Source: Rhizaria sp. SCN 62-66
Taxonomy: Eukaryota
Assembly (NCBI GenBank): GCA_001724265.1
Contig: MEDY01000069.1
Span: 124,001-146,356 of the forward strand
Length of the DNA: 22,356 nt
Direction: 5' to 3'
Shown: positions 1 through 21,646 of the stretch, one piece after another
Layout of the letters: each line of letters starts with the position of its first letter
Numbering within the stretch: position 1 is the first letter of the stretch
Program-made: the position numbers and the translations under genes
The notes under the pieces: generated by a model
Told to the model about the DNA's origin: nothing
Databases searched by the model: none
What the model saw: only the letters and a program-made list of their open reading frames with translations

Positions 1-1240
1 TGAGTGAAAAATGGGAGGAAATAAAGTGTAGAAATGAAACGAGTGTGTCTTGCAAAAATAAAATGTTATATCTCGTCATAACGGTACCGGGGGCCACACA
101 ATGACTCAGTTGCGAACGGCCCCACAAGGAGCCGAACTGAGACCGAGACCGCGACCGAAAAGAAGGCCGCCTGGAGGGTTCGCAAAAATCAACCCAATCT
201 CGAAAAGCGGAAAATCATGCATATCTAAGTCATCATATCGCTATTCTAGTTTTGTTTTCCGGGATAGCGTATTAAACATCTGAGCAAGTTAGGACTCTTG
301 GTTTTTTCATGTGGTAGGCTGCATATGTCATATCCATCTTTGGTGTTCGTCAGGAACGGTTTCGATGCTTACTTGACTTTAGAGCCTCTGTGAGGAGTGT
401 GTAATCAAGCCGAATGGCGTAATTCTTACGGCATCGCCTGTATCAGTGAGTGTTCTCTTGTCAGACGCGGCATCGAATGCTCAGGTGAAGGTTGTGCGCT
501 GCTGTGCTTCTTGGCGCTCAAGGTGGTTGCTCAGTTCACAAGATGCGCCAATCTTCATGTGACCAACCCGAATATCAATTTAAAAAAACTTAGATGGCGC
601 ATGTTTATACAGAATCACGTCGACTTGACATCGGCAAACTTGATGTTTGGCTTGAACATGGCACGATCATCTCTGATGCAGCGTGTGACGTCGTTTCCCA
701 GTCTCAAACGTGATTGTGGTGGCTGCAAGAAATCATGACATTTGTCAAGCATAATAGGATTTAACCGCATTCAACCAAACGTGTAGTATGTATTCAAGTG
801 ACATCAGTAATAAAACGTTTGATATTTATATTCATGCCTTGTTCCTAGCTGACTATGCAAGATAATATAGTCTCCACCACAAACGCGTTTTTAAGTGGTG
901 ACGTTCTCAGTCGACGCGACCCTTTTGGCACAGCGAAGGGTGAGGTTTGAACAGAACTTTTAATTTCAAGAAAACACAGTATCTAATCGCTTAATACGCA
1001 TTAAACTGCTGCAAACAGCTTTTCCAAGTGCGTTTTGGTATAGTTCCTTTTTGTTATTACGATTACAGTGCGATCAATGTTCTCTTCTTGAGCATTTACG
1101 TAGCACCACTTCGCTCACCCTCAGGCGGAAGCTCACCCTCTTTCGCCCAACTCGAACATTCCTTTAGCTCTCGCTTTCTAGCCTTAGTCTTTAGCATCGC
1201 CCTGCCGTTCTTGCTAATCTACCGCTCCCGCATTAAGACA

Positions 1241-7057: not shown

Positions 7058-10000
7058 ATGGTCAAGAAGAAGATTGACTCTCGTATCCGCACGCTGATCG
7101 AGAACGGCGTCGCCCTGCGCCACCGCTCCCTGTTCGTCGTCGTCGGTGACCGTGGCCGCGACCAGGTTGTCAACCTCCACTACATGCTCTCCAAGGCGCG
7201 CGTCCGCTCCCGTCCTAGCGTGCTCTGGTGCTACAAGACCGAACTCGGTTTTGACAGTGATCGCAAGCGCCGCGCAGAGAAGCTCCGCAAGGCCGTCGCT
7301 CGCGGCACGCGTCAGATCGACGAAGAGAACCCCTTCGAGGTGTTCCTCGGCGGCACGGACATTCGCTACACATACTACAAGGAGACGGACCAGGTGCTCG
7401 GCCAGACCTTCGGCATGTGCGTGCTGCAGGACTTCCAGTCAATTACGCCCAACATCCTCGCCCGCACGATCGAGACGGTCGAGGGCGGTGGCGTGGTCGT
7501 GTTGCTGATCAAGACCATCTCGTCCCTGCGCCAGCTCTACACCATGACCATGGACGTCCACAGCCGCTACCGCACGGAAAACCGCGAGCAGATTGTCGGC
7601 CGCTTCAACGAGCGCTTCATGCTGTCCCTGGCCATGTGCCGCGCGTGCATCGTGGTGGATGACGAGCTCAACGTGCTGCCCATCTCGGCCCACGTGCGCG
7701 ACCTGCAGAAGATCACCGTGGTCAACACCAGCGCCAACAAGAGCGGCAACGGCCTCGGCGACGACAACTTCGAGGACGATCACGTGCTCTCTGAGAAGGA
7801 GCTTGAGCTCAAGGACCTCAAGCACGCGCTGCACGACACGCTGCCCGTGGGCCCGCTCGTTGGCCTCACACGCACTCTGGACCAGGCCAAGGGCCTGCTC
7901 ACCTTCGCCGAGGCCATCGCGGAGAAGTCGCTCAAGGCCACCGTCGCGCTCATCGCCGCGCGCGGCCGCGGCAAGTCCGCTGCGCTCGGTATTTCCCTCG
8001 CCTGTGCCGTCGCGTCGGGCTACTCGAACATTTTCGTCACGGCGCCGACGCCTGAGAACCTCAAGACGCTGTTCGAGATGGCCGTGGCGGGCTTCAAGGC
8101 GCTGGGCTACACCGAGCACGCCGACTTCGAGGTCGTCCAGTCGACGAACCCGAAGCTCAACAACGCCGTGGTGCGCATCAACATCTTCCGCTCGCATCGC
8201 CAGACGATCCAGTACATCAACCCCGAGGACCACCAGCGTCTGTCGCAGGCCGAGCTGCTGGTCATCGACGAGGCCGCCGCGATCCCGCTTCCCATCGTTC
8301 AGCGCCTCATCGGTCCCTACCTCGTTTTTCTCAGCTCCACTGTCAACGGCTACGAAGGCACGGGCCGCGCGCTGTCGCTCAAGCTGCTCAAGCAGCTCCG
8401 CGAGCAGACCGCCGCCGCCGTGTACACGGCCTACAACAGCACCAACAAGCACGTCAAGGACGCCATCGCGGCCGCCAACGCCTCCACCAACGCCACCGCA
8501 GGCTCCTCCGTCTCGAGCAACAACGCCGTCGCGGCCAACCTGCGTGGCCGCACGCTCCGCGAAGTGACTCTGAACGAGCCGATCCGTTACGCCGAGGGCG
8601 ACGTCGTCGAGAAGTGGCTCAACGAGCTCCTGTGTCTCGACTGCGCCAGCCACGTGCCAAAGCTTACGCGCGCCGTCGGCGGCGGCGTGCCGCACCCGTC
8701 ACTGTGCCAGCTGTACTACGTCGACCGCGACACGCTCTTCTCGCACCACAAGGCGTCCGAGGCGTTCCTGCAGCGCATGATGGCGCTCTACGTTTCGTCG
8801 CACTACAAGAACTCGCCCAATGACCTGCAGATCATGTCCGACGCACCGGGCCACCACCTCTTCGTGCTGCTGGGTCCCGTGTCGGAGACGACGTCGCTGC
8901 CCGACCTGCTCTGCGTCGTGCAGGTCTGCCTCGAAGGCGCCATCACGCGCACCAACTACGTCGCGCAGTCGATCAACGGCATCAACCCGGCCGGCGACCT
9001 TATCCCCTGGTGCGTGTCGCAGCAGTTCCAGTCGCCCGAGTTCGCGGGCCTGTCTGGCGCGCGCATCGTGCGCATCGCGGTGCACCCGGAGCTCCAGAAG
9101 ATGGGCTACGGCTCCCGTGCCGTGCAGCTGCTGACCGACTACTACGAGGAGAAGTTCACTTCGCTTAACGAGAACAGCGACAGCGACAATGATGACGAGG
9201 ACGAGGACGACGGCCACGAGAACGGTGGCATCAAGGCCAAGGGCAAGGGCAGCGTCCTCTCCGACGCCCAGCTCGACGCCCAGACCAAGGCCTCTGGCTC
9301 TTCGCTCATGTCCGAGACGCTGGCCCCGCGCAAGCAGCTGCCGCCGCTGCTGTCTGAGCTCTCCGACCGCAAGCCCGAGCCGCTGCACTGGGTGGGCGTG
9401 TCGTTCGGCCTGACGCACGAGCTGCTGCGCTTCTTCCGCCGCCGCGCCTTCGTGCCGCTCTATGTGCGCCCCACGGCCAACGACGTCACGGGCGAGCATA
9501 CGTGCGTCATGGTGCGCGCTCAAGACAGCCGCGCCGCCACGCTGCTCGCCGCCGAGAAGGGCATCGCGCACGGCCCCGCGGCCGCCGCGCTCGCGACAAA
9601 CTCGGCCGTCGCAGCGCTGCGCAAGTCGGCCGGCGCCGACCGCGCGGGCCACGGCGGCGTGGGCGCCAACGCGCCGCTTTGGCTGCAGTCGTATGCGACC
9701 GACTTCCGCAAGCGCTTTACGGGGCTGCTGGGGTACGAGTTCCGCAAGCTACCCGTGCCGCTGGGTGTAGCTGTGCTGCAGGACCCATCGACGCAGGAGC
9801 AGGAGGAGGCCACGCGCCGCATCGCCGCCGGCCCCGCCATCACGGTCGGCGGCGACGGCAACGACGATGATGAGGACGACGACGGCAACGGCGGCGGCAA
9901 GAGCGGTGACGACGACGGCGCGTCGCTGTCTCTGCTCGGCGCGCCGCTGACGATGACCGAGATGAGTCTGCTGATCAGCGACTTCGACGTGCACCGCCTC

Positions 10001-10744
10001 GAGACGTACGCCAAGAACCTCGTCGACCACCACCTCATCCTGGACCTGCTGCCCGCGCTGGCCAAGCTCTACTTCATGGGCCGTGCGCACGTCATGCTCT
10101 CGCAGACACAGGCGTCGATCCTGCTCGGCATCGGGCTGCAGTACAAGCACTTGCCCGAGATCGAGGGCGAGATCGGTGTCGGTTGCACGCAGCTCATGGC
10201 GCTCTTCAACAAGGCGCTGCGCCGCTACGCCGCATACCTGCGACAGATCGGCGAAAGCGCCATCGGCGAGCAGCTCCGCGCCAAGGCCGGCGCGGGCGCC
10301 GCGGCCGCCGTGGCCGCGCTGGGCCGCATGCAGTCAGCCGCAGCGAACAACGCCGACACCTCGTCCACGGGGCTCAAGAAGGAGCTGCTGACTGCGGGCG
10401 CCGAGATGCAGAAGCAGATCAAGACGAAGCAGCACAAGCTGCTCGAGTCGCTGCACCTCGAGTCGTACGCCATCGCCGGCTCCGACGCCGACTGGGAGGC
10501 TAACGCCGCCGCGCTCGCCAAGAGCGCCGTCACGGGCGGCACGGTCGCAATCAAGTCCGACGCGTCCAAGCACGAGCGCCACGCGCAGCTGCGCGCCAGC
10601 GGCACGCCCGCCGAGCGCAAGAAGATCGCGGAGCTGACGCGCGAGGAAGAGAAGAAGCGCGGCAAGCGCGCGGGCTCGCTTGCCCTTGGTGCCGGCGGCA
10701 CCTTCGTGTCTAAGAAGGCGCGCAACAAGGGCAGCGACGCATGA
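7058..10744 (+). CDS. NAT10: RNA cytidine acetyltransferase NAT10/Kre33 (18S rRNA and tRNA ac4C), 1228 aa, intronless
   Basis: Starts MVKKKIDSRIRTLIENGV...HRSLFVVVGD. Contains RPSVLWCYK, LGQTFGMCVLQDF, helicase Walker A AARGRGKSAALG, LLVIDEAAAIPLP, STVNGYEGTGR, SHYKNSPNDLQ, GDLIPW, GNAT acetyl-CoA motif RIAVHPELQKMGYGSRA, TGEHTCVM and a basic C-terminus. Confidence 0.98.
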   Translation: MVKKKIDSRIRTLIENGVALRHRSLFVVVGDRGRDQVVNLHYMLSKARVRSRPSVLWCYKTELGFDSDRKRRAEKLRKAVARGTRQIDEENPFEVFLGGTDIRYTYYKETDQVLGQTFGMCVLQDFQSITPNILARTIETVEGGGVVVLLIKTISSLRQLYTMTMDVHSRYRTENREQIVGRFNERFMLSLAMCRACIVVDDELNVLPISAHVRDLQKITVVNTSANKSGNGLGDDNFEDDHVLSEKELELKDLKHALHDTLPVGPLVGLTRTLDQAKGLLTFAEAIAEKSLKATVALIAARGRGKSAALGISLACAVASGYSNIFVTAPTPENLKTLFEMAVAGFKALGYTEHADFEVVQSTNPKLNNAVVRINIFRSHRQTIQYINPEDHQRLSQAELLVIDEAAAIPLPIVQRLIGPYLVFLSSTVNGYEGTGRALSLKLLKQLREQTAAAVYTAYNSTNKHVKDAIAAANASTNATAGSSVSSNNAVAANLRGRTLREVTLNEPIRYAEGDVVEKWLNELLCLDCASHVPKLTRAVGGGVPHPSLCQLYYVDRDTLFSHHKASEAFLQRMMALYVSSHYKNSPNDLQIMSDAPGHHLFVLLGPVSETTSLPDLLCVVQVCLEGAITRTNYVAQSINGINPAGDLIPWCVSQQFQSPEFAGLSGARIVRIAVHPELQKMGYGSRAVQLLTDYYEEKFTSLNENSDSDNDDEDEDDGHENGGIKAKGKGSVLSDAQLDAQTKASGSSLMSETLAPRKQLPPLLSELSDRKPEPLHWVGVSFGLTHELLRFFRRRAFVPLYVRPTANDVTGEHTCVMVRAQDSRAATLLAAEKGIAHGPAAAALATNSAVAALRKSAGADRAGHGGVGANAPLWLQSYATDFRKRFTGLLGYEFRKLPVPLGVAVLQDPSTQEQEEATRRIAAGPAITVGGDGNDDDEDDDGNGGGKSGDDDGASLSLLGAPLTMTEMSLLISDFDVHRLETYAKNLVDHHLILDLLPALAKLYFMGRAHVMLSQTQASILLGIGLQYKHLPEIEGEIGVGCTQLMALFNKALRRYAAYLRQIGESAIGEQLRAKAGAGAAAAVAALGRMQSAAANNADTSSTGLKKELLTAGAEMQKQIKTKQHKLLESLHLESYAIAGSDADWEANAAALAKSAVTGGTVAIKSDASKHERHAQLRASGTPAERKKIAELTREEEKKRGKRAGSLALGAGGTFVSKKARNKGSDA

Positions 10745-13823: not shown

Positions 13824-14758
13824 CGCAAAAGGGCTAGAGGGAACGCCGCTGGGAGAAGGAACGAACGAGGGTGGGCTAACGGTACGACAAGCGAGAGGGG
13901 ACAGTGGAAGTAACGAGGAAGTCTACAAGCAAGAACAAGAGGTGGTGTAGAGTGCGTGCGTGAGACAGGTAATGGCAATGATTTTTAGTCCTCTACGCTC
14001 GTCACATGTGTCGAGAGTGCAATAGCGAAGTGGCAGCAAGCTTGATATGGAGGAGCGTCGGCGAGACTATGCCTCCTCTCAAGCCTCCACTTAACGACAG
14101 ATCCCCTGCCCACATCAGCTCGTCGTGGACAATACATGTTTACAAAGCGGCACAACGCAACGTGTTGTACTCTGACAGTTCATAGAATCACTATTCATTC
14201 ACGCAACTTCGAATGTGCAAGCGTCCACGTCAGCGGGCCTTGTTCCTCGACTTCATTGTCATTGATCCGCCGCGACCGCGAAAACCCGGAATTTTTAGGA
14301 ACACTCGTGGATGGACTGGCCGAGATGTGGTGACATTGAGAAATTGTCGAGTGTATCACGCATCTATCGTCAATCCGCCATCTAAGTGCTTGGCTGGTGT
14401 TGTGCAGTGCTGTTGTCTATGTTCTGTAAATTGTTAAATCTGTGCTACCGGTGTGCTTGCGTGCTAGACATCAAAGAGCTCACTCTCTTCCGTCTTCTGG
14501 CCTCTGTGTGACGTTGTTCGTACACGGACCACCGCTTGCTTCTCTGAAACAGACCTTTACTTTTGCACACAGAGCAGTCTTAATATCATTGTTTGATACA
14601 TAGTCTTGCTTTGAGTCCTGGTTATTCCTGATAAAAGTACAAAAAGGCTCTTTGTCGCCGCTCTACATCGTCCCAAGCGAGCTGCTGCTGATCCACACTC
14701 CACACCCGCAACTGGTCGTTTCTTCGCGCTATCGCGTTTCACACACAACCCGCCGCCA
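13824..14758. promoter_or_regulatory. Putative bidirectional promoter region between head-to-head SEC12 and the TBP-like gene (935 bp)
   Basis: Divergent ATGs at 13823 (-) and 14759 (+), pyrimidine-rich leaders on each side, and a central CG-rich island near 14220-14330. Inferred from geometry only. Confidence 0.55.
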
Positions 14759-16110
14759 ATGAGTGACTCAGAGTCCGAGTGGGAGGACGACCCCAATGAG
14801 GTCTGCACGGCCCCCATCGCCGTCAAGTCAGAGCTCACACCCTCATCCAACTCGTGTGCTGCTGATGCGTCCTTGGTCAAGACCGAGGCCCCGATCGAGG
14901 CCGCGCTGTCTAACACTGACCGGTGCAAGCTGGCAGTCAAGTCGCGGCGCGAGTATCTGTGCCAACTTGACGGGTACGAGAAAGAGATCCTTGCTGCGCT
15001 GAAACGCGAAATGAACGTACGTCTCTAGGATTATCAAACAATAGGCTTGGTTTCTCTTTCGACTTTCGAAAAGAGACGACTCGAATGGTACAATACTTTC
15101 AATCAGCGACTGTTGTGTTGATGAGATATCTTTTACTGTATATCAAGAACGCTTACTCACCAATTTCTCGTCATACGCAACTCTTTGCTTGAATCGCTTT
15201 CTCTCTGCTTCCACACACAGATCACCGCGTCGATCGCGGCCATGTCTTCGCAGTTCAACCTGGGCGGCAACATCGACCTGGACAAGCTCGTCGCCTTCGC
15301 GCCCAACGCCGAAATTGACAAGAAGCGTCGTCCTAACGTGCACATCCGCCTCCGGAACCCGCACTGCTCGGCGCAGGTCAACCCCGGTGGCTTCGTGTCG
15401 ATCCTCGGCGGCCGTTCGCGCTCCGAGATGTACAACGCGTCGCGCCTCGTCGCCGAGATGGTCGTGCGCTCCCGGGCGTTTGAGCGCGCAACGGTTAAGG
15501 ACTTTAAGATTAACAACATTGTCATGTCGTGCAAGACCAGGCTCAAGCTGCGGCTCGACGAGGTCGAGCGCGAGCTGCTGCGCCAGCGCATCGATGCGCA
15601 TTCCGACATCACCGTGTTCCCGTGCGTGCGCGTGAAGCTCGAGTACCCGCGCAAGCACTCGAGCAAGATCTTCTCCACGGGCGCGTTCATCATCATGGGT
15701 CTGACGCATATCGCCGATAGCGTCGTGTCGATGAAGGAGCTGTACGAGCTCATCCTACGGCTGATGCCGCACACTGAGATGCGCGCTGAAGCGGACGAAG
15801 GAGGGGCTGGGGCATCGGTACGTATTGTGGGGCTGTTGAACTTGAGCTGTGTCGCATTTTCGCAATTGTTATCAACAAAGCTGGAACCGTAGGAAATCAT
15901 TCTACATGAACACACATTTGTGAAATATGCTGAGAATTTGTTGTATGAATGTATGTTGATTTTGTGTGCATCATCAAACTGTTTAGCTCACCTGCATTGT
16001 GTCCCGTCTTTCCTCTGCTTAATGCTCGCTTGCTGGTTTTCTAGGGGGATGATGATGCCAATATTGCCCCCGAGGACGATTATGACGAATTGATGCACCC
16101 TGAGCTATGA
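14759..16110 (+). CDS. Divergent TATA-binding-protein family factor (TBP-like/TRF), 306 aa; exons 14759-15016, 15221-15817, 16045-16110
   Basis: Exon 2 aligns nearly gap-free with the two-repeat TBP core: LGGNIDL~LGCRLDL, NAEIDKKR~NAEYNPKR, IRLRNP~MRIREP, GGRS~GAKS, ASR, DFKINNIVMSC~DFKIQNIVGSC, LRL~IRL, VFPC~LFPG, IFSTG~IFVSG, LYELI~IYPVL. Both introns are GTACGT...AG and phase 0. The last exon gives an acidic tail GDDDANIAPEDDYDELMHPEL* and is the least certain part. Confidence 0.88.
15017..15220 (+). other. Intron 1 of the TBP-like gene (204 nt, phase 0)
   Basis: AAC|GTACGT...pyrimidine tract...CACACAG|ATC. AT-rich, with an in-frame stop if retained. Confidence 0.88.
15818..16044 (+). other. 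Intron 2 of the TBP-like gene (227 nt, phase 0)
   Basis: TCG|GTACGT...GCTCAC (15986-15991)...TTTTCTAG|GGG. GC content drops abruptly at 15818. Confidence 0.75.
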
Positions 16111-16856: not shown

Positions 16857-19800
16857 ATGTCGGCTCCATCGATTTCTGGCGCCGAATCTCTTAGTCGTAC
16901 GTCACTCCTCTCCCTGTCTCCTTGCAGTCATCTGCCGACGTAAGTCTGACCTCTCGTCTCTTACTCGAACCGCCTTTCATCTGCTGGCACTCTGAAATCT
17001 GTTGTGGTATACCGTGTAGGTCGCATTTTTGGTGACGATGAGACCCAGAACCCGTTCCGCAGCCCGTTACTTGCGACCGGCGCTGGACCCGCCCCCGTGG
17101 CCCCCTCGCCCTCGGTCCACCACCACCAGCAGCAACAACAGATCCAGCAAGCTCAGCAACAGCAGCAACAGCCTGGCGATGCGGCGCAGCAGGGCTACGC
17201 TCGCCCCGACGGCGTCGGGCTGAGTTTTGACGGCATGGCGACCCCTTCCGTGCCCGCCTCGGTGGTCGACACGGGCGGCCTGCCTTTCTTGACGCGCTCC
17301 CCAGACCAGGTACGGACAACAAAGCGGAGACTCCTCGATATAATCGAGTGCGTTCAACAATATTCATTTGTACATCTGAATCAGCGTATCATTTCTTTTA
17401 TTCAGGTATGTTGTGAGAAATCTAGAATGTCTTATCTCTGAAACATTCACATCTGTGCCGTAACCCTTCTCTTGACTGGATAGGAACTTTCCGCATTCAG
17501 CTCAGCTTTCGGTCTTGCCCTCTCACCTCCCGGCGCTGCCTCACCGGTGTCCACCGCGTCTCCTGTTGATACTGCGAGCAGTAGCACTAGCGTCAGCCTT
17601 GGCGGTGGCACTGGCGCTGCGTCTGGCGCTGGCGCCATCACCGCTGGCCACCCCAGTCTCGCGCTTGCTCCGGCCAACACATACGCCACAGCTGATGGCG
17701 CGGCGTCTGCAAAGCAACAAGGCGCCACAACCCCAATCGTGACGCGCTCGGCCCCAACCTCGCTTCCCCTTGCTCTCGATAGCGCCAGCACCAACGCTGC
17801 CACCGCCAAGCCTCCGCTCGTGCGCCTGCACTGGCTGCCTGCCGTGGACAAGAAGCGCCTCCGTTCCGCCCGCGCCGGCGCGAGTCTCGAGAAGGACAAG
17901 CCCGCCCGCCGCGCGCCGCAGCCGCAGCCGGCGCCGGCTGTCTTGAAGGGCGGCGCGTTCACGGCGGTCGACGTGGAGGAAGCCAAGGCCGACCCGTGGT
18001 CGGTGCTCGCGAGTACTGTCATCGCGAACGACACCAATGCTGCGAACGTCAACGCAGGAGGCGTTACTGGTGCTGATGTCTGTGCTGTTGGTGGTGCTGC
18101 TGGTGGTGAGACTGTGCTCGACGTCACCGGCACGTACCGCCAGCAAGACGACAGTGACCAGGGCGAAGACCACGCCTCCACCGTCGCCGACGACAATCCA
18201 GCTGGTGAGAATGATAAAGACGACGATGACGACGACGGGGACGATAACAGTGATCTGTCGTCGTCTTCCCGCGACCGTCTTAGACGCCGCCGCGGCGTTC
18301 GGTCCCACCGTAGCGCCAGCGGCAGCGGTGGCGCCCACGAAGCGTACGGCGCGACCGCGATCGCCCGCGGCGGCGCGGACGGGTTCGGCTTCACCTCGGC
18401 GATGGCCCGCAAGGCCGCTGCGTCCGGCGCCGCGACGGCCCGCGCGTCAGCAAAGCTCGAGCCGCTGTGGCAGAAGGAGGACCTGAGTGACTTTATCGCG
18501 TCGCTGCCGCCGCACCGCCGCGGGCCCGCCGTGGCGGCTGTTGTGGGAGCCTTCGCGGCGCCCGAGCTGGCAGCGGCGGCGCTGGAGCGCGACGCCGTGG
18601 AGCGTGAGCGTGCGCGCCGGGAGGAAAAGGCCGAGGCGGAGGCAGAGGCGATGCGGGCGGCGGCCACGGCGGCGGCGGCGGCGACCGCGACCGGCGAAGA
18701 CGAGGAGGGCGCGAACGGGTACGGGCTCGACAAGCGCGTGCAGGAGGAGGAGAAGGCGCGAGAGGCGGACCGCGAACGCAAGGCCGGCAGCATGTTCCGG
18801 ATGCTAAAGGAAGCAGGGCCGGAGATTGCGTACATTGCCCCTGGCTTGACTTTCCTCGCTGTTGCCACTGTCTGTAACCTTGCGGTGCCCAAGTTGCTCG
18901 GCGACTTTATCGACCGGCTCAGTGGAGCTCCTGGTACGTTTGTGATGATTTTTCACGTTGTCGTAAGCTTAGAATCAACATGACCGATGATTAAAAGCTG
19001 AAAACACCTCTTCAACTGCATCTCACTTCTTTCAACTCACCATTGCTCCTGTTATTGCTCTTTTCTAGGCACGATTACCCAGTCTGGCGCAAACCAGATA
19101 ATTTACATCATGCTCGTGGTGATGTCCGTGATGACCGTATGCAACTTCCTGTGGATGTTTTTTCTCTGGGTGGCCGGTGACCGCATCGTGGCCCGGCTCC
19201 GCAAACAGCTCTTCCAGTGCATTCTCATCCGCGAAGTCGCTTTTTTCGACGCGCACCGCACTGGCGAGCTGATCTCGCGTCTCTCGGGTGACGTCGTCGT
19301 TGTGAACACTGCGCTGACGACTGAGGTCGCCGAACTGGTCCAGCGCTCAGTCATCGTCTTCGGCGGACTCGCGTACATGTGTTATCTGGCCTGGGACCTG
19401 ACCCTCATCGCGCTCGGCGTCGCACCCGTCATCGGTCTCGTCGGCTCGCGGCTGGCGCGGTTCTTCCACTCTCTCGCGCGTCAGTCAAATGACGAGTTGG
19501 CCCGCGCCACCACCGTCGCCGAAGAGGCCATCAGCTGCCACCGCACGGTGCGCTCCTTCTCGCAGGAGCCGCTGATGTGCGCACGCTACGACCGCCACTG
19601 CGACGTCGCGTTCCAATACGCGCGCAAGCTCAAGATCGCCAAGGCCGGCCAGCGCGCGTTCGTCTACTACGCGGGCTCCATCGGCATTGGCTTCCTGCTT
19701 TGGTACGGCGCGACCAAGGTCATTAAGGGGGACATGAGCGCCGGTGAGCTGCTCACGTTCACCTTCTACGGCCTGCAGCTCGGCGAGAAGACGGGCCAGA

Positions 19801-21646
19801 TGATGGACAACTGGGGCATCCTCAAGGCCGCGACGGGCGCGTCTGCGCGTGTGTTCGAGCTCATTGACGACGGCGTCGCGCAAGGTCGCGTGCACCGCAG
19901 GCCGCGCGGTGTGGTTCTCAAAAAAGACGCCGAGGCGTATGTGCGCGCTCATTACCCGCAGGTTGCGGCCGAGATCGACACGCTCGTGGAGCAGAATAAG
20001 CTGCAGCTGCAGTCGGCGGCGGAGAGCGCGCACAGCATCTCGTTGTCGCCGTCGGGCCCGCTGTCGCGCGCGCAATCACTGGCGGGCAAGAAGCATAGCA
20101 ACGCGACGGACGACAACAATTACAGTCTGCTGGGCGACGATAGCAAGGTCGACCAGCGCGGCGGCTACATGCGCAGTCAGAACGACGACGTCAAGCACGA
20201 CACGCTGCCCGAGGGCATCTTCGGCAACGCCAACGAGCCGTACCCCGTCTCCGGCGCCGCGACCGCGAGTGCTCTGGCAGCTGAGGCGCTGCGCAACTCG
20301 CTCAGCAGCAACACATTCACGAGTCGCGCCGGTAGCGTCAGCGGGAGCGTGAGCTCCAGCGGCCGCAGCGGCAGTGGCGGCGCGACGGCGGCTGCGCGCG
20401 CGCTACAATTGCGCGCCGACACGGCCCCCTGGCTGCGGTTCCCGTTGCAGTTCCACGACGTGCACTTTGCGTACCCGACACGGCTTAACAAAACGGTCCT
20501 CAAGGGCCTCTCGCTCACCCTCGAGCCCGGACAGGTGACCGCGCTCGTCGGCACTTCTGGCGGCGGCAAGAGCACGATCGTCGCGCTGATCGAGCGGTTC
20601 TATGAGCCGCTGCGAGGCTCGGTCACCTGGGGCGGCGTGCCCATTGAGTGTCTCGACATGGCGTGGTGGCACCGGCAGGTACGGCGATAGAATTTCCATT
20701 CATTTCTTCGATTTTCTCTTTTCTTATGACTTCGTATGCATGTAATGCCTGTCATCTTATATCGTTGACGTCACTGGGATGCTCACTCATGCCTTGTTGG
20801 AACTTGTATTTTCTTCGCTTAGGTCGGTTTTGTGGGGCAGGAACCCGTGCTGTTTTGCACTACAATTCGCGAGAACATTCTTTTCGGCGTGCTTGGCAAG
20901 GGTGACGGCAAAGTCTACACACAGGTACGTTGATCTATTCCTTTGAACAAAACGTTACTACATCATCTCTCTAAAGTTCATCATTGTCTTCATTGGCTGT
21001 TCACTGATCTATGGCTCACTGCAAAGTTTTCTCGCTTGTTATTGTATTTTGATTATTTTAGGCGGATGTGGAGCGCGTAGCCCGTCTGGCGAACGCGCAC
21101 GACTTCATCTCGGCCTGGCCCCGTGGCTACGACACGATCGTCGGCGAGCGCGGTGCGCAGATCTCCGGCGGCCAGAAGCAGCGCATCGCGATCGCGCGCG
21201 CCATGCTCATGGACCCGCCGATCCTGCTGCTCGACGAGGCGACGTCAGCGCTCGACACCGAGTCGGAGCTGCTCGTGCAGCTGGCGCTCGAGCGGCTGAT
21301 GAAGGGTCGCACCACGCTCATGATCGCGCATAGGCTGTCGACTGTGCGCAACGCCGACGTCGTCGTCGTCGTCGCCGGTGGCGTCGTCGCCGAGAAGGGC
21401 AGCCACGAGGAGTTGATGCAGAAGGGCGGCGTCTACGCCAAGCTGGTGTCGCCGCAGCTCAGCGGCGGCGAGCGCGAGGCAGCGCAGGCGGCGGTCAAGA
21501 AGGCCGCTGCGGCTGTGGGCGCTGGCGCTGGCGCTGCTCAGGTTGAGGAGATTGAGGATGGCAATGGCGGTGACTTTGGTAAAGCGGCTGCGCAGACTAT
21601 AGGTCACAAGGGCAAGGGCAAGTCGAAGGGGGTCAAGACGAAGTAA
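16857..21646 (+). CDS. ABC transporter subfamily B half transporter (TAP/ABCB9/ABCB10/Mdl1-like TMD-NBD), about 1358 aa; exons 16857-16896, 17020-17309, 17484-18933, 19069-20678, 20823-20924, 21062-21646
   Basis: TMD motifs [53 protein letters not shown]...[11 protein letters not shown] and [14 protein letters not shown] motifs [11 protein letters not shown], Walker [11 protein letters not shown]-loop VGQEPVLF, signature [13 protein letters not shown], Walker [13 protein letters not shown] and H-loop IAHRLST. Five GTACG...TAG introns give a 4077-nt open spliced frame. The start codon and first 40-nt exon are the least certain part. Confidence 0.92.
16897..17019 (+). other. ABCB intron 1 (123 nt, phase 1)
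   Basis: GTACGT...GTGTAG. C|GT joins the ATG at 16857 in frame to the next exon. Confidence 0.6.
17118..17171 (+). repeat. CAC/CAG/CAA triplet tract encoding [18 protein letters not shown] in the ABCB N-terminal extension
   Basis: Seen directly in exon 2. Confidence 0.85.
17310..17483 (+). other. ABCB intron 2 (174 nt, phase 0)
   Basis: CAG|GTACGG...GGATAG|GAA. The downstream AGs at 17500 and 17505 would break the frame. Confidence 0.75.
18934..19068 (+). other. ABCB intron 3 (135 nt, phase 1)
   Basis: G|GTACGT...ACTCAC (19035-19040)...TTTTCTAG|GC. Joins TM1 to TM2 in frame. Confidence 0.92.
20679..20822 (+). other. ABCB intron 4 (144 nt, phase 0)
   Basis: CAG|GTACGG...GCTCAC (20781-20786)...CTTAG|GTC. 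Restores [11 protein letters not shown]. Confidence 0.95.
20925..21061 (+). other. ABCB intron 5 (137 nt, phase 0)
   Basis: CAG|GTACGT...GCTCAC (21014-21019)...TTTTAG|GCG. Restores [19 protein letters not shown]. Confidence 0.95.

Follow-up and report, generated by a model that had tools for sequence, protein, structure and literature searches.

A TBP-like protein with altered first-lobe DNA-contact residues and a lineage-restricted group of environmental relatives

TBP, the TATA-box binding protein, is the universal nucleator of eukaryotic transcription; its residues F99, F116, F190 and F207 (all position numbers used here are those of yeast TBP) intercalate at the TATA box in two pairs, N69 and N159 are conserved asparagines, and the related TRF1, TRF2, TRF3, TRF4 and TLF constitute textbook alternative initiation systems. 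A passage of PMC3142196 puts the conservation of the TBP core at about 80% between yeast and mammals. In several of the relatives the four Phe are altered: according to the parts of Duttke et al. 2014 (PMC4180970) concerned with these residues, metazoan TRF2, which arose in the common ancestor of bilaterians and evolves faster than TBP, alters three of the four and keeps the last, the TBP-family protein of T. brucei no longer has the first two, in that of the dinoflagellate Crypthecodinium cohnii all four are gone, and TBP paralogs are present in several protist lineages. Here we report on a TBP-like gene lying at 14759-16110 on the plus strand of a 22,356-nucleotide stretch of DNA (the window) from contig MEDY01000069.1, filed under Rhizaria sp. 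SCN 62-66, the product of which is predicted to retain the TBP saddle while its first lobe carries a distinctive set of residues shared with a small group of environmental proteins. An original prediction, made from the letters of the window, had regarded it as probably a lineage-specific paralog in which the first repeat alone has lost its kinking residues, and which could thus kink DNA at one end only.

The gene comprises three exons, which upon joining by their coordinates encode a 306-residue product with one terminal stop:

14759-15016, plus strand: exon 1, 86 codons, opening with the acidic-aromatic MSDSESEWEDD, then a linker of low complexity and, at about 14915-15016, a helix-forming segment
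15017-15220, plus strand: intron 1, 204 nt, GTACGT..CAG, phase 0, 40% GC
15221-15817, plus strand: exon 2, 199 codons, with the whole TBP core (repeat 1 at about 15224-15469, repeat 2 at about 15497-15763)
15818-16044, plus strand: intron 2, 227 nt, GTACGT..TAG, phase 0, 40% GC
16045-16110, plus strand: exon 3, 21 codons and the stop, with an acidic-aromatic tail ending ..PEDDYDELMHPEL

Exon 2 matches the Pfam family PF00352 in two stretches (E 2.1e-22; its 79.2 bits clear the cut-off of 22.9), as do the relatives P0155, P0005 and P0009, P0013 having one such stretch, and its core matched 35 distinct TBP sequences in the PDB (best 1.8e-11). An AlphaFold2 (AF2) model of exon 2 has a mean predicted local distance difference test score (pLDDT) of 93.3 and the strand-helix order of the TBP saddle, and Foldseek superposed it on eukaryotic TBP chains and TBP-DNA complexes with template modeling (TM) scores of 0.85-0.91 and root-mean-square deviations (rmsd) of 1.5-2.1 A at 25-28% identity, an example being the superposition on 1cdw_A (TM 0.91, rmsd 1.7 A, 180 columns, 27% identity). 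A search of the ESM Atlas with the core returned generic TBP clusters only. With two repeats above the Pfam threshold and a predicted two-lobe saddle the protein belongs to the TBP superfamily, while its 25-28% identity to solved TBP cores lies outside the conservation typical of canonical TBP.

The departures from canonical TBP are concentrated in lobe 1; the DNA-contact positions considered here are those of the yeast and human TBP-TATA structures. Three alignments, namely phmmer to the human TBP core 1nvp_A, MAFFT with canonical TBPs and hmmalign of 159 TBP-family proteins, agree on the residues at the key positions and bear out the original reading of Arg at F99, Asn at F116 and Ala at N69 with F190, F207 and N159 retained, down to the exact codon coordinates. 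In the counts that follow, 12 rows of the family formed by the window protein and its close relatives are set against 130 other TBP-family rows, or 9 distinct full-length family rows against the 90 rows that have Phe at all four positions (pattern FFFF):

15329-15331, plus strand: F99 position, Arg; Arg in 12/12 family rows, Phe in 96 and Arg in 11 of the 130 others
15380-15382, plus strand: F116 position, Asn; Asn in 6, Gln in 1 and Thr in 5 family rows, Phe in 104/130 others
15392-15394, plus strand: K120-equivalent, four residues after F116, Phe; Phe in 6 and Tyr in 6 family rows, Lys in 108, Arg in 10 and an aromatic in 0/130 others
15239-15241, plus strand: N69 position, Ala, by three alignments
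15515-15517, plus strand: N159 position, Asn kept, as in 12/12 family rows
15617-15619, plus strand: F190 position, Phe kept; Phe in the family rows with patterns RNFF and RQFF (7/12), Leu in those with RTLF
15665-15673, plus strand: Lys-Ile-Phe, with Lys at the L205 position (12/12 family rows against Leu in 81/130 others) and Phe kept at F207 (15671-15673; 12/12)
15695-15697, plus strand: T215 position, Met; Met in 12/12 family rows, Thr in 95/130 others
L114 position: Gln or Gly in the family (Gln in the window), Leu in 95/130 others
V71 position: Ser or Met in the family (Ser in the window), Val in 94/130 others
V122 position: Ser or Thr in the family (Ser in the window), Val in 83/130 others
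T124 position: Leu or Met in the family (Leu in the window), Thr in 83/130 others

Thus, in place of the four Phe and two Asn of canonical TBP the window protein has R, N, F, F and A, N. In the alignments the outer edge of lobe 1 reads R-(N/Q/T)-(F/Y) across the family instead of F-F-K, i.e. an aromatic and a basic residue have in effect been exchanged. The original prediction that repeat 1 is stripped of its kinking aromatics holds for both Phe, but every one of the 12 family rows has an aromatic at the K120-equivalent on the same edge. Going by the unchanged hairpin length and the strand register, this aromatic probably faces the concave side opposite position 116, and, being next to the lost F116, it could serve as a displaced wedge. 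The loss of N69, which had been counted among the paralog's features, is real in the window copy, but the Ala is specific to it and its closest relative P0155; the other distinct rows among the nine have Ser (5), Asn (1) or a gap (1), and the fragment P0010 has Asn. The N-terminal stirrup retains NAE..K/R-K/R, as in canonical TBP. Likewise, V161 of lobe 2 is kept in 12/12 family rows, V213 is replaced by Ile in 12/12, and the K211-equivalent is Ala, Val or Ser. Relative to canonical TBP (PF00352; human 1CDW and 1NVP, yeast 1YTB), the protein therefore resembles it in the two-repeat saddle and in the Asn, Val, Pro and both Phe of lobe 2, and differs from it in seven substituted lobe 1 positions (F99, F116, L114, V71, V122, T124 and N69), the Phe at the K120-equivalent, L205K, T215M, an additional helix preceding the core and acidic-aromatic termini. 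The features private to the clade are the Arg together with the relocated aromatic and the other signature residues.

To define this family we relied on an exhaustive HMMER search of 1.84 billion cluster representatives, which yielded 337 proteins at E <=1e-3 and 13 at E <=1e-10, with a sharp step in E-value dividing a handful of close matches from ordinary TBPs; it was complemented by a word-indexed search, a profile search (of the 8000 candidates scored, 8 proteins reached E <=1e-5) and look-ups of clusters. Members of the family are the window protein, P0005, P0006/P0155, P0007/P0156, P0161, P0009, P0012 and P0013/P0158-P0160, along with the fragments P0008, P0010 and P0125, and the core identity among the relatives is 52-67%. 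They are all environmental sequences, drawn from JGI/IMG, ENA, Logan and one NCBI contig, with product names limited to the generic JGI label 'TATA-box binding protein' or 'hypothetical protein'. No family member was found under an organism name, though the collection includes EukProt, MMETSP and UniRef; this is informative rather than proof, given that the RTLF subfamily is poorly surveyed, the profile search having missed P0012 and P0013. This subfamily (P0012, P0013, P0158-P0160), in addition to its Leu at F190, has an Asn/Thr/Gln-rich insert of 100 to 150 residues, which separates the F190 region of repeat 2 from its final strands. A pattern search for related loci with a 5-row alignment recovered only the metagenome contig L001, with 1 of 254 pattern matches encoding a relative; the 14 pattern matches on viral contigs encoded none, and hence there is no sign of a giant-virus origin.

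For phylogenetic analysis we dropped from the 159 aligned proteins those rows with fewer than 80% of the match columns filled, as well as P0004, P0006 (P0155 called too short), P0011 (a canonical TBP duplicated in tandem) and P0014 (12 stretches in 854 aa). The 142 rows that remained went into a quick tree, where those of the family, 12 in number, make up a clade with a Shimodaira-Hasegawa-like approximate likelihood ratio support of 100 and a stem of 1.47. A careful tree of 100 rows, with all non-FFFF proteins, FFFF proteins thinned to <70% identity and identical rows removed, again united the 9 distinct family rows (100/100, stem 1.48), its bootstrap not having fully settled (correlation 0.982). 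In this tree the family falls outside a 14-row clade (100/96) with the patterns NWHF, QWNF and R[YW]SH, which from its Phe pattern, in the light of what PMC4180970 gives for TRF2, and from its sequences we take to be of the TRF2/TBPL1 type, and also outside a 7-row clade (100/94) holding the C. cohnii TLF (P0132, named by its sources). The original suggestion of a lineage-specific factor is thus sustained, in the sense of a distinct, lineage-restricted TBP clade apart from the TRF2-like one. In the literature that we searched, no TBP relative is described as having this signature, though the supplementary alignments of Duttke 2014 and Ravarani 2020 (RefMSA) could hold members. On that literature a clade combining the Arg/aromatic swap with a helix before the core and acidic-aromatic termini appears to be undescribed.

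The asymmetry as such is not new. Within the 142-row set, which is biased in consisting of the best matches to the window query, the FFFF pattern is seen in 90 rows, and loss of the first Phe pair with retention of the second in 10, namely seven family rows and three unrelated ones (P0025, P0096 and P0105), with the reverse pattern in 0/142. As the T. brucei protein and these three rows share the loss of the first pair, the direction of Phe loss is recurrent. Going by the description of trypanosomatid TRF4 in the relevant part of PMC4180970, with its first two Phe lost and the second pair kept, first-pair loss was already known from that protein and the RNFF pattern of the window protein conforms to it; the likeness is by description, the comparison set being without any named TRF4 sequence. 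TRF4 is given there as the sole TBP-family protein of its organism, and the window gene is set apart from it by its introns and mixed-strand neighborhood. The family aromatic, helix and tails are seen in none of the 130 non-family rows. Metazoan TRF2/TBPL1 is likewise a fast-evolving TBP paralog with altered Phe, but, as described in the same source, the residue it keeps is the last of the four, in contrast to RNFF here, and the rows that we take for it form their own 14-row clade.

Beyond the core the family members share an acidic-aromatic N-terminus (MSD.E[WF]E..), a variable low-complexity linker and an acidic-aromatic C-terminal tail. Exon 1 aligns to the N-terminal parts of P0155, P0005, P0007, P0009, P0010, P0012 and P0013, and tails such as EEDDFTLEHPE, EEDDFTMEHIEM and EDEDYTLEHVV, found among P0005, P0155, P0007 and P0161, are of the same kind as that of the window protein. 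The conserved segment preceding the core, Y..LD..E..AL..L..E, corresponds in the P0155 model to a 34-residue helix (83-116, block-mean pLDDT 78-96) that runs into the first strand, and residues 1-76 and the tail have pLDDT <50, the termini being modeled as disordered. Exon 1 matched no Pfam family and, in a phmmer search of the PDB at E up to 10, gave 0 matches; a Foldseek search with the full-length P0155 model recovered TBP cores only and nothing for the helix. Complex prediction with the P0155 helix (70-118) against its core (119-300) gave 0.50, 0.01 and 0.01 in runs without controls and is evidence neither way.

Several lines of evidence establish that the gene is real, intact and native. 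The window as a whole has the GC-rich exons and AT-richer introns and spacers of eukaryotic DNA; the exons of this gene have 50-62% GC against 40% in both introns, and its GC content at third codon positions (GC3) is 0.76 in exon 1 and 0.86 in exon 2, like that of the neighboring genes (0.82-0.91). Both introns start with GTACGT and end in AG after a pyrimidine-rich stretch. Removal of intron 1, which is located exactly at the boundary of helix and core, joins ..LKREMN to ITASIAAMSS.. without a gap relative to the uninterrupted open reading frame (ORF) of the 1446-bp contig L001, which encodes P0155. If intron 2 is left unspliced the frame stops at 15892, and if it is spliced the conserved C-terminal motif is reached; in all, splicing gives a frame that can be aligned over its full length with the intronless L001 ORF, with a 4-residue gap beside the second junction and none at the first. 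The sole public protein record of the locus, P0004 (216 aa), is a prokaryote-style call lacking the N-terminal helix and C-terminal tail; as its first residue is a Met inside exon 2 and it reads on into intron 2, it is a mis-call. By the Nei-Gojobori method (NG86), the ratio of nonsynonymous to synonymous divergence (dN/dS) relative to L001 is 0.286/0.80 (~0.36) in the core, at 65% core identity; of the parts flanking the core, the N-terminal one has 0.55/2.2 (0.25) and the C-terminal one 0.53/2.9 (0.18). These values speak against neutral evolution and indicate a TBP-like gene conserved under constraint, and together with the open frames, native GC3 and consensus splice sites they uphold the original prediction that it is not a pseudogene.

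Taking these observations together, the explanation towards which we lean, without great assurance, is that of a lineage-specific TBP-related factor with non-canonical promoter recognition, which most likely works at some of the promoters, or for a single polymerase, with an ordinary TBP alongside it. The protein would still sit on the DNA minor groove as a saddle, with lobe 2, which keeps the Asn, Val, Pro and both Phe, kinking the upstream end of the site and recruiting a TFIIB-type partner as TBP does. Lobe 1, with its polar R-N/Q/T-F/Y edge, would read the downstream half differently, for instance through an Arg that enters the groove and a wedge moved over by one or two strands, and the outcome would be a non-canonical promoter complex that is probably less bent or differently phased. 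The clade is a further natural experiment, with a TBP-like lobe 2 and a conserved, non-random redesign of lobe 1; should it bind DNA, one could learn from it to what extent the TATA-kinking machinery can move rather than be lost, and which promoter element results.

Among the readings in which the protein binds DNA, it is probable that it coexists with a canonical TBP, given that the neighboring NAT10 is ordinary even as the window protein is just 25-28% identical to TBP. This NAT10 scores 1067 bits against human NAT10 and is 82, 71, 70 and 69% identical to metagenome proteins and 58-64% identical to those of named chytrids, Mucoromycota, fishes, plants and oomycetes, all alike, with no named organism above 64%; the ESM Atlas gave no useful taxon for it. 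As it is comparably close to named fungi, animals, plants and oomycetes, the organism is not a long-branch taxon, and the contig comes from a normally evolving eukaryotic lineage without a close sequenced named relative. Among the listed runs 11 of 13, from 7 studies that sampled metagenomes of bioreactors, wastewater, activated sludge and fuel cells, contain the stretch (one run may be the source of the contig), and the clade points to a eukaryotic lineage that recurs in wastewater-type metagenomes and has housekeeping proteins without a close named relative.

RNA-type libraries speak in part for a real, spliced gene, at least some of it being present in them, and in part, as do certain other observations, against this proposal. 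Four runs were placed on the stretch: one DNA-like contig crosses all of it (X2), and six short contigs from three RNA-type runs (X7, X8 and X10) map to the 5' untranslated region and exon 1, to exon 2, or, in one case, to part of intron 1 joined to exon 2. They cover 14702-14852 and 14840-14990 in the 5' untranslated region and exon 1, and 15220-15372, 15280-15545, 15426-15576 and 15485-15683 in exon 2, the last being from a polyA library; the parts without such cover include intron 2 as well as exon 3 and the junction 15016|15221, and we conclude nothing from them. The contig with the junction (X7 record 4; 218 nt, depth 3.2) covers 15022-15087 and then joins 15221, skipping 133 nt with GT..AG ends. 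Splicing at intron 1 is thus confirmed for the acceptor 15220|15221, by this single observation, but the only junction seen in RNA uses the donor at 15088 and not that at 15017 required for the full-length protein:

15085-15089, plus strand: alternative 5' splice site, ATG at 15085-15087 followed by GT at 15088, the ATG being in frame with exon 2

The junction for the full-length protein (15016|15221) is taken from homology to L001, not from RNA. With splicing at 15088 the long ORF would stop at 15028, and the observed form may be either a short isoform (Met, exon 2 and exon 3) that lacks the N-terminal region of 86 residues, or a splice variant that is unproductive. Moreover, run X7 is flagged as probably DNA, as is X8, though a deletion with GT..AG ends is hard to explain in the X7 contig without cDNA. 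The remaining points on this side concern divergence, phylogeny and lobe 2. dS is probably saturated, given the 65% amino-acid identity and GC3 of 0.8. The sister group of the family as drawn is a pair of long FFFF branches, a placement that is likely to be long-branch attraction, and an approximately unbiased (AU) test did not reject a union of the family with the TLF-containing clade (delta log likelihood 0.52, p 0.51; the group was chosen after seeing the tree), so that the deep position of the family is tentative. Of the 9 distinct family rows, 8 have an acidic residue at the E188 position in the TFIIB-side stirrup; the exception is the window protein, with Thr there and Asp at the E186-equivalent (DITVFPC), so that a TFIIB-type contact is less supported in this copy than in its relatives. 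Lastly, L205K and T215M alter the second lobe too.

Two other accounts in which the protein works at promoters are, in our estimate, rather unlikely though deserving of consideration. The first is that the family represents an old, separate branch of TBP-family proteins, from a eukaryotic lineage without a sequenced named relative; the wedge/basic swap of its lobe 1 would shift the kink or let Arg read a narrow groove, giving it a core-promoter element and an initiation pathway of its own, and it might even provide the main TBP of its lineage. The second, of comparably limited probability, is that it is the sole TBP-family protein of the lineage and acts as a general factor for all nuclear polymerases, canonical TATA boxes having been abandoned. 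There are reported precedents for a sole divergent protein in trypanosomes (TRF4) and C. cohnii (TLF), as stated in the relevant part of Duttke et al. (PMC4180970). Further, TATAWAWR has 1 match in the 22.4-kb window (823-830, minus strand) against 0.47 expected, and no gene read here has a match upstream of it on the gene's strand, but a single window with few genes is too small for judging TATA use. The conservation of NAT10, the introns and the gene structure are all ordinary, which does not favor such a wholesale change. Further, the family core shows 52-67% identity, as against 69-82% for the NAT10-like proteins, among apparently similar sources (that they are the same organisms is not established); this is the reverse of how TBP and NAT10 usually compare and fits a fast-evolving paralog.

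Distinctly unlikely, in our view, is that the protein no longer acts as a promoter-bound saddle, serving instead as a decoy or as a regulator by titration of partners of the TFIIA or TFIIB type, or binding nucleic acid that is single-stranded or otherwise unusual. All the hydrophobic groove contacts of lobe 1 that we take to exist in TBP are now polar or charged, and on speculation the conserved acidic-aromatic termini could be built-in DNA mimics. As given in the abstract of PMC12209930, the Giardia TBP, which is without key Phe, prefers single-stranded DNA. However, lobe 2 of the window protein retains the Asn, Val, both Phe and Pro, and the changes on the concave face are conserved rather than random, which argues for a maintained ligand surface. 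Nor does AF2 dock the termini with confidence, as is evident from the low-scoring ends of the P0155 model.

Very improbable is that the family is a divergent member of a described clade, either the dinoflagellate/alveolate TLF or the kinetoplastid TRF4. The C. cohnii TLF is likewise a divergent protist TBP relative with altered Phe, and the AU test given above does not reject a union of the family with its 7-row clade; the placement of the family apart from known TRF clades is borne out for the TRF2-like clade and, for TLF, in the best tree but not by the test of alternatives. The direction of Phe loss is that reported for TRF4 in the part of PMC4180970 cited above. On the other side, the best tree separates the family from the TLF clade, each with full support, and C. 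cohnii TLF, having lost all four Phe according to the same source, has HRYT as opposed to RNFF here with its second pair kept. The absence of an aromatic at the K120-equivalent from all non-family rows and the family-specific N-terminal helix and termini also speak against this reading. Finally, the spliceosomal introns and the genes on both strands are unlike the gene arrays of kinetoplastids. That the gene is a decaying duplicate or an annotation artifact is hardly credible, for although the existing call P0004 is wrong and the junction seen in RNA would shorten the long ORF, the frames are open through three exons with consensus splice sites and match an intronless relative end to end, dN/dS is <1, the family has invariant residues and the predicted fold is of high confidence.

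The genes neighboring that of the TBP-like factor are ordinary housekeeping genes lying on both strands, and they encode a cathepsin-L-like protease, Sec15, NAT10, a WD40 protein and an ABC transporter. The NAT10/Kre33 gene (7058-10741, plus strand) is a single exon of 1228 codons, its C-terminal extension being long and of low complexity. At 17484-18983 on the plus strand there is an open frame of 499 codons that has no Pfam match and is rich in runs of Ala, Ser and Asp; it lies directly upstream of the ABC-transporter exons at 19002-21646 on the same strand, and may be either a long N-terminal extension of the transporter or a separate gene.

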